Source: an uncultured Candidatus Saccharibacteria bacterium
GTDB lineage: Bacteria > Patescibacteriota > SICC01
Length of the DNA: 64,000 nt
Assembly: GCA_964525455.1 (NCBI GenBank)
Contig: CAZGHP010000001.1
Span: 74,739-138,738, forward strand
Direction: 5' to 3'
Numbering within the stretch: the stretch's first letter is position 1; every line of letters begins with the position of its first letter. The notes beneath the pieces are model-generated. The model ran no database searches and was not told the DNA's origin. It saw only the letters and a list, made by a program, of their open reading frames with translations. Shown piece by piece: positions 12,132 to 13,988 of the stretch. The position numbers and the translations under genes were made by a program.

Positions 12132-13988
12132 ATGCCGTTTAGTATTTCAAAATTTCGCAACGCGAAGCAGCCCTCAAATAGATACCAGTCAAGGATCGAG
12201 GCGCTTAAGCGTAATGGAATTTCTACAAACTACATCGAAGAAGCGGTAAAGGGTGTTGTAGGGAATGTGAACCAGGGCGTTGAATCCCTGGTTGTTTATG
12301 GCGAACCCCAAAGCGGCAAGACAGAAATGATGATTGCCTTAACAGCGAAGCTGCTAGATGAGGGTAGGCAAATTGTAGTGGAACTACTGAATGATAACCT
12401 TCAGCTTAGGGACCAAAATCTAGAACGTTTTCAAAAGTCGGGCCTTAACCCGACGCCGATAGACATAGCAGATTTTCTTGAGGAAAAAGTTGGACAGAAA
12501 CAATGGGTCGTCTTTTGTAAAAAGAATTCGAACGATTTATCGAAGTTAATCTCTCATGTAGGGCATTACAAGGGACTCGTGGTGGTTGATGACGAGGCGG
12601 ATTACGCTTCTCCTAACTCAAAAATTAATCGAAACGAGACTACAAAAATTAACACATTGATTGGAAAATTGTTACGTAAAAAAGGAACGTATATTGGGGT
12701 TACGGCAACACCTGCGCGCCTAGACTTAAATAATACCTTTGATAATCTGACGGAAAAGTGGGTGGAGTTCGGAAGCCATGAACACTATGTGGGAAAAGAT
12801 ATATTCTTTCCTCTGGGCGCCAGCGGCAACGTAGAGTATTCACTGGAAATCCTCCCCGACATTTACGCTGACGCCAAGCACCTGCGAACGGCGTTGCTTA
12901 GTTTCTTAGTAAATGTTGCTTATATTAATCTTCATGCTGAAACACGAGAGCGCTGGAGTGATGGCGTACTCGAAGAAGACATCCCGTTCACATTTTTAGT
13001 CCACACTAGCGGGAAGAAAGACGATCACGCTGATGATGCAAGAGACGTGAATAAAGTGTTTGACGTTTTGTCTGATAAGGAATCAGCAAAGTTTGAGCAG
13101 TATGCAAGAGAGTTGTACGAAGTCGCAAGCAAGAAAACCGGTGACGAGGAGTTTGCGGAGCAAATCACCCTCTTTGTGATAGATAACATCAACCGCAAAA
13201 AGGTGACAGTGCTAAACAGTAAAAGGAAAAGCTCCGTTGATCCCACTGACCCTCCAGCATTGTTTAGCGTCACAATTGGGGGAAATATAGTTTCTCGCGG
13301 TGTGACCTTTAATAATTTGCTTGGTATGTTCTTCACTCGCGACTCTAAGCACAAGCTACAGCAAGACACGTATATTCAACGAGCACGTATGTTCGGAAAT
13401 CGTAAGAAGTACCTGTCTCACTTTGAGCTTACAATTCCCGAAAGTTTGTACGACGATTGGCACAGGTGTTTTGTATATCATCATCTTTCGCTCGAAAGTA
13501 TTCGGAATGACGATGGTGCTCCTATCTGGCTAGCTGATAGCCGCATTCAGCCGGCGGCCGGCCCAAGTATTGATAAACGGCACGTTGTGACCGATCAAGG
13601 AGAAATGTCGTTTGCAATTTTTGAGTACAACCCTAAGGCAGAAGAAATTATTCACTCATCTAATTACGGAAACGATCAAAAATTAAATCTTTTACATGAA
13701 CTAGTAGGAGAAAAGGCGTTTCCTGAGTACCTGGTCCGGTATGTAAAAGTTAGAAGCAGGAATATATCGAAGGACGTAGCTTTTCTCGGCACGCGAAACA
13801 TTGGCAAAGAAACTCAGGGCCACGACACTTTAACTCGACGCAAAGGTTTCATTGGCGGTGACGAAATCAGCAGATACCCTGATGCAGTACACTACATAAA
13901 AATCTTAGTTAACGAGAATCAGCAGGCGCGCATACTATACAAGGCTTCCGGAGCGGCGAAGTTCATCAAGAACACAAAGAATGCTTAA
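12132..13988 (+). CDS. SF2-helicase-like P-loop NTPase with large C-terminal domain (Z1-domain-like putative restriction/defence component)
   Basis: Walker A GEPQSGKT, Walker B/DEAD VVVDDEADY, motif III VTATPAR, later QRARMFGNR arginine-finger-like motif; about 40% GC; stop overlaps next gene. Confidence 0.6.
   Translation: MPFSISKFRNAKQPSNRYQSRIEALKRNGISTNYIEEAVKGVVGNVNQGVESLVVYGEPQSGKTEMMIALTAKLLDEGRQIVVELLNDNLQLRDQNLERFQKSGLNPTPIDIADFLEEKVGQKQWVVFCKKNSNDLSKLISHVGHYKGLVVVDDEADYASPNSKINRNETTKINTLIGKLLRKKGTYIGVTATPARLDLNNTFDNLTEKWVEFGSHEHYVGKDIFFPLGASGNVEYSLEILPDIYADAKHLRTALLSFLVNVAYINLHAETRERWSDGVLEEDIPFTFLVHTSGKKDDHADDARDVNKVFDVLSDKESAKFEQYARELYEVASKKTGDEEFAEQITLFVIDNINRKKVTVLNSKRKSSVDPTDPPALFSVTIGGNIVSRGVTFNNLLGMFFTRDSKHKLQQDTYIQRARMFGNRKKYLSHFELTIPESLYDDWHRCFVYHHLSLESIRNDDGAPIWLADSRIQPAAGPSIDKRHVVTDQGEMSFAIFEYNPKAEEIIHSSNYGNDQKLNLLHELVGEKAFPEYLVRYVKVRSRNISKDVAFLGTRNIGKETQGHDTLTRRKGFIGGDEISRYPDAVHYIKILVNENQQARILYKASGAAKFIKNTKNA

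Follow-up and report, generated by a model that had tools for sequence, protein, structure and literature searches.

A predicted CglI-like restriction motor with a new endonuclease-fold partner and an SPPY methyltransferase in a Saccharibacteria genome

The closest described relatives of the system reported here are CglI and NgoAVII, in which an H subunit is accompanied by an R subunit of 345-358 residues and by a C5-cytosine methyltransferase. A Walker A motif that bears a glutamine is a diagnostic feature of the CglI H type (PMC5861437). The H subunit of CglI further carries an H/H motif composed of H282 and H290. Its C-terminal domain is built of seven strands and five helices according to the published description of structure 6F1S; it serves to bind DNA, not to cleave it. 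Here we analyze a stretch of 64,000 nucleotides, the window, from an uncultured Candidatus Saccharibacteria bacterium (contig CAZGHP010000001.1, positions 74,739 to 138,738). Positions 12132-15602 of the window probably hold a compact, mobile and horizontally acquired three-gene ATP-dependent restriction-modification system. Its genes encode a 618-residue protein, referred to below as the motor, a small protein of 144 residues and a DNA methyltransferase. The following features were assigned:

12132..13988, + strand: motor gene, 618 residues
12132..12836, + strand: N-terminal extension and DEAD (N-core RecA) domain of the motor, residues 1-235, based on Pfam ResIII (residues 35-196), invariant motif residues and the alignment with H.NgoAVII
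12300-12323, + strand: Walker A motif (PQSGKT), motif residues invariant
12588-12602, + strand: Walker B motif (DDEAD), motif residues invariant
12702-12719, + strand: motif III (TATPAR), motif residues invariant
13497..13985, + strand: C-terminal domain of the motor, residues 456-618, based on secondary-structure prediction and family conservation
13981..14415, + strand: gene of the 144-residue protein, the middle one of three overlapping genes
14412..15602, + strand: DNA amino-methyltransferase of 396 residues, based on Pfam N6_N4_Mtase and UPF0020 and on PADLOC MTase_II (E 1e-29)

An earlier note, made from the DNA letters of this stretch, had placed an open reading frame of 618 codons at 12132-13988 on the forward strand. 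These coordinates proved to be exact, and the frame starts with ATG. The three motifs quoted in that note, GEPQSGKT, VVVDDEADY and VTATPAR, were found in the translation in this order, followed by QRARMFGNR, and the residues of all four are invariant in an alignment of 90 sequences of the motor family. The strand opposite the frame is closed by stop codons. A word-indexed search revealed more than 2,950 relatives of the motor; among the matches listed, most were 612-625 residues long and about 50% identical over the full length. The motor gene is real and conserved. A Pfam scan, proposed in the note as a check, showed ResIII to cover residues 35-196, and the REBASE-derived PADLOC model "Type II helicase domain protein" matched residues 52-451 (E 2.8e-46). 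Two structure searches with a model of the full-length motor were dominated by superfamily 2 motors. When the motor family profile was compared with the PDB, only domain IV of DnaA and the Walker A stretch of DnaC were matched. T-cell receptor chains, which appeared in a phmmer search of the PDB, were regarded as noise.

For a direct test of homology the NgoAVII operon of Neisseria gonorrhoeae was recovered from record L087 and consists of a C5 methyltransferase, an R subunit with PLD and B3 domains and an H subunit of 629 residues. Crystal structure 6F1S of CglI is matched by the C-terminal domain of this H subunit (E 1e-12). The subunit was verified as H.NgoAVII by this domain together with the neighbouring PLD-B3 and C5-methyltransferase genes. 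R.NgoAVII itself matches RE_NgoFVII and RE_NgoFVII_C, and M.NgoAVII matches DNA_methylase PF00145. The replicons concerned, NZ_CP119142.1 and NZ_CP119140.1 (L087), are 2.17-Mb N. gonorrhoeae sequences which are filed as plasmids in PLSDB and are evidently chromosomes; both contain the NgoAVII operon. NZ_CP119142.1 has only 17 annotated features, and the NgoAVII operon was left unannotated there.

Comparison of the motor with H.NgoAVII by BLASTP gave 26% identity over residues 35-440 (E 1e-26), and hhalign of the motor family profile with H.NgoAVII gave a probability of 99.6% over 382 columns. All four features that are diagnostic of CglI are present in the motor, namely the glutamine of Walker A, DDEAD with a conserved loop, a QxxR motif VI and the H/H motif. 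In GEPQSGKT, residues P59, Q60, G62, K63 and T64 are invariant in the 90 sequences, and the corresponding stretch of NgoAVII is NVQSGKT. Walker B and its loop read VVVDDEADYASPNSKIN in the window and are aligned with VIVDDEADAASLN of NgoAVII; here D153, D154, E155, D157, A159, P161 and N162 are invariant. QRARMFGNR, which the note had offered as a possible motif VI, can indeed be read in this way, with invariant Q416-R-A-R419 aligned to QHSR of NgoAVII. In the H/H motif H291 is invariant and H299 is conserved in at least 90% of the sequences, and their spacing of eight residues equals that of H282 and H290 in CglI. Helices at residues 296-352 come after this motif. By homology, the 618-residue protein is predicted to be an ATP-driven double-stranded DNA translocase of the CglI H type.

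The C-terminal domain of the motor matches that of CglI in position and size. Its predicted elements occur in the order three strands, three main helices (plus one of four residues), one strand, a short helix and three strands, which is compatible with the element tally published for 6F1S. Within the family the domain is strongly conserved, in particular at P464, W466, D469, R471, D481, E491, R569, H587, N594, R600 and Y603. Profile-profile comparison of the window domain with two and then four C-terminal domains of the CglI type yielded probabilities of 0.5-0.7% and thus no sequence similarity, and 6F1S was absent from the matches of PDB sequence searches with the motor family. The sole sequence match of the domain, to domain IV of DnaA (full E 1e-4), was rejected as its identity, since the score was marginal (domain E 0.03-0.12) and the segment equivalent to the DnaA recognition helix is predicted to be a beta-strand (E549-556).

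The second gene encodes a protein with an endonuclease fold of the Hjc/PvuII type. Its best structural matches were the Holliday-junction resolvases Hjc and RecU, followed by tRNA-splicing endonuclease subunits, NhoI and PvuII, and it has the alpha-beta-beta-beta-alpha-beta core fold of PD-(D/E)xK nucleases. Judged by the order of elements rather than by superposition, its secondary structure appears to parallel that of Hjc element by element. Alignments of 99 and 49 diverse members revealed that only G9, K44, P52, W53, C81 and G85 are invariant; R49, F55, F57, R113, Y119, G123 and K131 are nearly so. Variable loops are located at about residues 18-31 and 95-107. K44 is part of the third predicted strand (residues 39-46, IYMKHS), which was equated with the canonical beta-3, and on this mapping to Hjc it would correspond to the lysine of (D/E)xK. 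At position 42, where ExK has its "E", the family carries Y, F or L. About 90% of the members have N or D at position 36, and 75-95% have E or D at position 3, where the window copy has N. D84 is 87% conserved and stands at a non-canonical position.

Sequence libraries contain little that resembles this small protein. The window copy had no match in Pfam or NCBIfam, in PADLOC or in a profile search of the PDB, and its sole library match was PHROGs phrog_28860, a family of unknown function. Pfam RecU was matched by two of 49 members (best E 0.0026), which we take as a lead only. At 50% identity the family falls into 947 clusters, and its members are nearly always stand-alone proteins of 140-170 residues. 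Nearly all of the 150 best representatives were free of domain fusions, and no Pfam domain was found in P0278 (313 residues) and five other longer homologues. The only fusion found in the family comes from a Pacearchaeota metagenome-assembled genome (DAOSDI010000008.1; L015:4113-5198), where one open reading frame of 361 residues combines a homologue of the small protein with a C-terminal HD domain (PF01966), a marginal match of 22.4 bits against a cutoff of 22.

The methyltransferase gene overlaps that of the small protein by 4 nucleotides. The window copy has motif I (DPMMGSGT) close to its N-terminus and, about 190 residues further on, motif IV (SPPY). The family shows the same arrangement with SPPY about 195 residues after motif I, and SPPY was invariant in 67 of 67 full-length copies. 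An SPPY motif is typical of N4-cytosine enzymes.

In order to follow the linkage of the three genes, 80 related loci were fetched out of 297 matches among the representative genomes of 185,579 species. Together with contigs collected before, these gave 86 loci, 81 of them distinct. Among the fetched loci are ones from WOR-3, Dehalococcoidia, Nitrospirota, Saccharibacteria, Bacteroidota, Alpha- and Gammaproteobacteria, Actinomycetota, Verrucomicrobiota and a Pacearchaeote; the family is scattered over many bacterial phyla and some archaea. Clustering of the neighbouring open reading frames at the 81 loci revealed only three conserved families: the motor and, by tblastn, the small protein were present at all 81 loci, and one methyltransferase family at 68. 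No further gene is conserved around the pair. The SPPY methyltransferase lies within 4.5-5 kb of the pair in 68 of the 81 loci (84%). Mean identity is 56% for the motor across phyla, 38% for the small protein and 34% for the methyltransferase, two subtypes of which are only about 22% identical. Pairwise identities of motor and small protein co-vary strongly (Spearman 0.63, 63 loci). Phage and plasmid collections contained no full-length relative of the window subfamily, and the plasmid matches that were opened turned out to be CglI-type systems with PLD nucleases.

We favour a restriction-modification system because the motor is homologous to a restriction subunit, the 144-residue partner is linked to it and co-varies with it, and the SPPY methyltransferase is associated with both. 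The proposal of the earlier note, an ATP-dependent restriction component paired with a methyltransferase, gains support from the homology to H.NgoAVII and from the 68 loci with an SPPY enzyme. The motor would act in complex with the co-translated small protein, which most likely would supply the DNA-cleaving or DNA-clamping centre and replace the PLD-B3 R subunit of CglI. The methyltransferase would mark host DNA, probably as N4-methylcytosine and possibly as N6-methyladenine. With host DNA marked in this way, only unmodified incoming DNA would trigger ATP hydrolysis, translocation and cleavage. The target sequence may be read by the small protein, by the conserved C-terminal domain of the motor or by the methyltransferase.

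Several observations weigh against this restriction-modification system. The canonical E...D...(D/E)xK acids are not conserved in either set of small proteins, so that the protein may instead be an adaptor or DNA-binding subunit without catalytic function. A sequence-recognition domain could not be identified in any subunit, and the proposed ATPase activity, assembly into a complex and cleavage are predictions. The window motor replaces near-invariant residues of its C-terminal domain, with L552 and Y588 in place of H and A605 in place of Y; P0002, the closest relative, also deviates at these positions. Position and strand of the methyltransferase gene vary between loci, and the enzyme co-varies weakly with both motor (0.17) and small protein (0.17). 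About 10-13 of the 81 loci have no SPPY methyltransferase nearby. Some of these carry other methyltransferases (M.EcoRI-like or beta-class), and several showed no methyltransferase among the products checked, which did not include all neighbours. Among the latter, L005, L008 and L013 from Dehalococcoidia carry the closest relatives of the window small protein.

The missing acids also lend themselves to a different assignment, in which the small protein is a catalytically dead adaptor with an endonuclease fold and the DNA is cleaved by the C-terminal domain of the motor or by a recruited host nuclease. We consider this doubtful. The domain does contain near-invariant polar residues (D469, D481, E491, H552, H587, H588, N594) and is conserved far above what was reported for its CglI counterpart, and the HD fusion at L015 looks like the addition of a further hydrolase. 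Nevertheless, the domain matches no nuclease family in sequence, H552 and H588 are lost in the window copy and in P0002, the HD match is marginal, and the equivalent domain of CglI binds DNA without cutting. A Type III or BREX-like logic, with the methyltransferase supplying specificity to motor and small protein, is unlikely, if somewhat less so. It would explain why the methyltransferases are more divergent than motor and small protein and why the cassette is paired almost exclusively with one invariant-SPPY family (68 of 81 loci); furthermore, both motor and small protein are without a recognisable DNA-reading domain. Since the co-variation of the small protein with the methyltransferase equals that of the motor, nothing suggests that the small protein matches specificity, which is also in line with this logic. 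Very improbable, in our view, is a role outside restriction, either as a helicase-resolvase in repair or recombination (branch migration plus Hjc-like cleavage) or in methylation-independent abortive infection, with the methyltransferase merely a frequent neighbour. The resolvases among the structural matches and the loci without an SPPY enzyme speak for it, as do seven loci where the pair is embedded among GHKL/MORC-like ATPases and not beside an SPPY methyltransferase. On the other side stand the patchy, horizontally mobile distribution (297 matches among 185,579 species), the low-GC island at a tRNA gene, the linkage of the methyltransferase in 84% of the loci, a restriction enzyme subunit as the closest characterised homologue and the absence of resolvase catalytic residues from the small protein.

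The three genes are located on a genomic island with two further assigned features:

11993..12064, + strand: tRNA-Gln(CTG), left edge of the island, assigned with ARAGORN
15638-16156: membrane protein of 172 residues, not conserved

The island extends from the tRNA gene at 11993-12064 to about 16300 and has a GC content of 42-50% compared to about 64% in the flanks. GC drops from about 0.66 to 0.42-0.46 directly after tRNA-Gln; the island starts at most 70 nucleotides from this gene and stops before a heliorhodopsin gene. Horizontal acquisition and mobility of the system are suggested by this low-GC island at tRNA-Gln and by the scattering of the family across phyla. The tRNA gene is likely the integration site, and no integrase-family domain was found in the four genes of the island. 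Six further tRNA genes are present in the window, five of them within the first 10.2 kb. Promoter and terminator scans of the island gave fewer matches than shuffled sequence. The membrane protein was rejected as a fourth component, having neither a homologue in any related locus nor a family match. Its gene is flanked by 25-nucleotide direct repeats at 15614-15638 and 16181-16205 (GGTTCYAGACCCGACCGSCGAGCCA, 92% identical). Both end with GAGCCA and by eye resemble a tRNA 3' end, with no match to tRNA-Gln; possibly they are what remains of att sites from a nested insertion.

Outside the island several other genes were assigned. The heliorhodopsin gene (16382-17152, + strand) lies directly to the right; it matches NCBIfam HeR (E 3.9e-97, 324.6 bits against a cutoff of 100), and its Pfam match PF18761 was obtained on L001, a contig identical to that of the window. 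A copper-handling pair at 17455-20191 (+) is composed of a protein with a CopM-family metallochaperone domain (17455-18069) together with a P-type ATPase that carries a heavy-metal-binding domain and is listed at 17966-20191; its start at 8065 on L001 corresponds to about 18122 in the window. On the left, a D-Ala-D-Ala ligase (7034-8008, +) is followed by a protein of 362 residues (8027-9115, +) with a D-Ala-D-Ala dipeptidase (Peptidase_M15) segment, and the two form a Ddl/VanX-like pair.

Finally, the system was compared with described ones. From the MZA system MzaC was compared, and the corresponding equivalog NF041933 of NCBIfam scored 40.9 bits with residues 319-434 of the motor only, against a cutoff of 1500; GHKL or AIPR genes are absent from the window. 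For the small protein, the dimeric PD-(D/E)xK endonucleases Hjc, RecU, I-Ssp6803I and PvuII, themselves small, are the systems of comparison. Type I HsdR and Type III Res subunits are also among the closest known motors. From CglI and NgoAVII the locus differs in all three parts. The motor is only about 26% identical to H.NgoAVII, and the CglI-type model of PADLOC scored 156 bits over the motor only, compared to 1065 bits over the full length of H.NgoAVII. The island holds no gene for an R subunit that combines a PLD nuclease at the N-terminus with a B3-like DNA-binding domain at the C-terminus; in its place stands the Hjc-fold protein of 144 residues, which has no similarity to R.NgoAVII (hhalign 0.6%). 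Likewise, the island has no stand-alone C5-cytosine methyltransferase and carries an SPPY amino-methyltransferase instead, with matches to N6_N4_Mtase and UPF0020. The locus would represent a CglI-like restriction motor with a new partner, in which an SPPY methyltransferase takes the place of the C5 enzyme of CglI.
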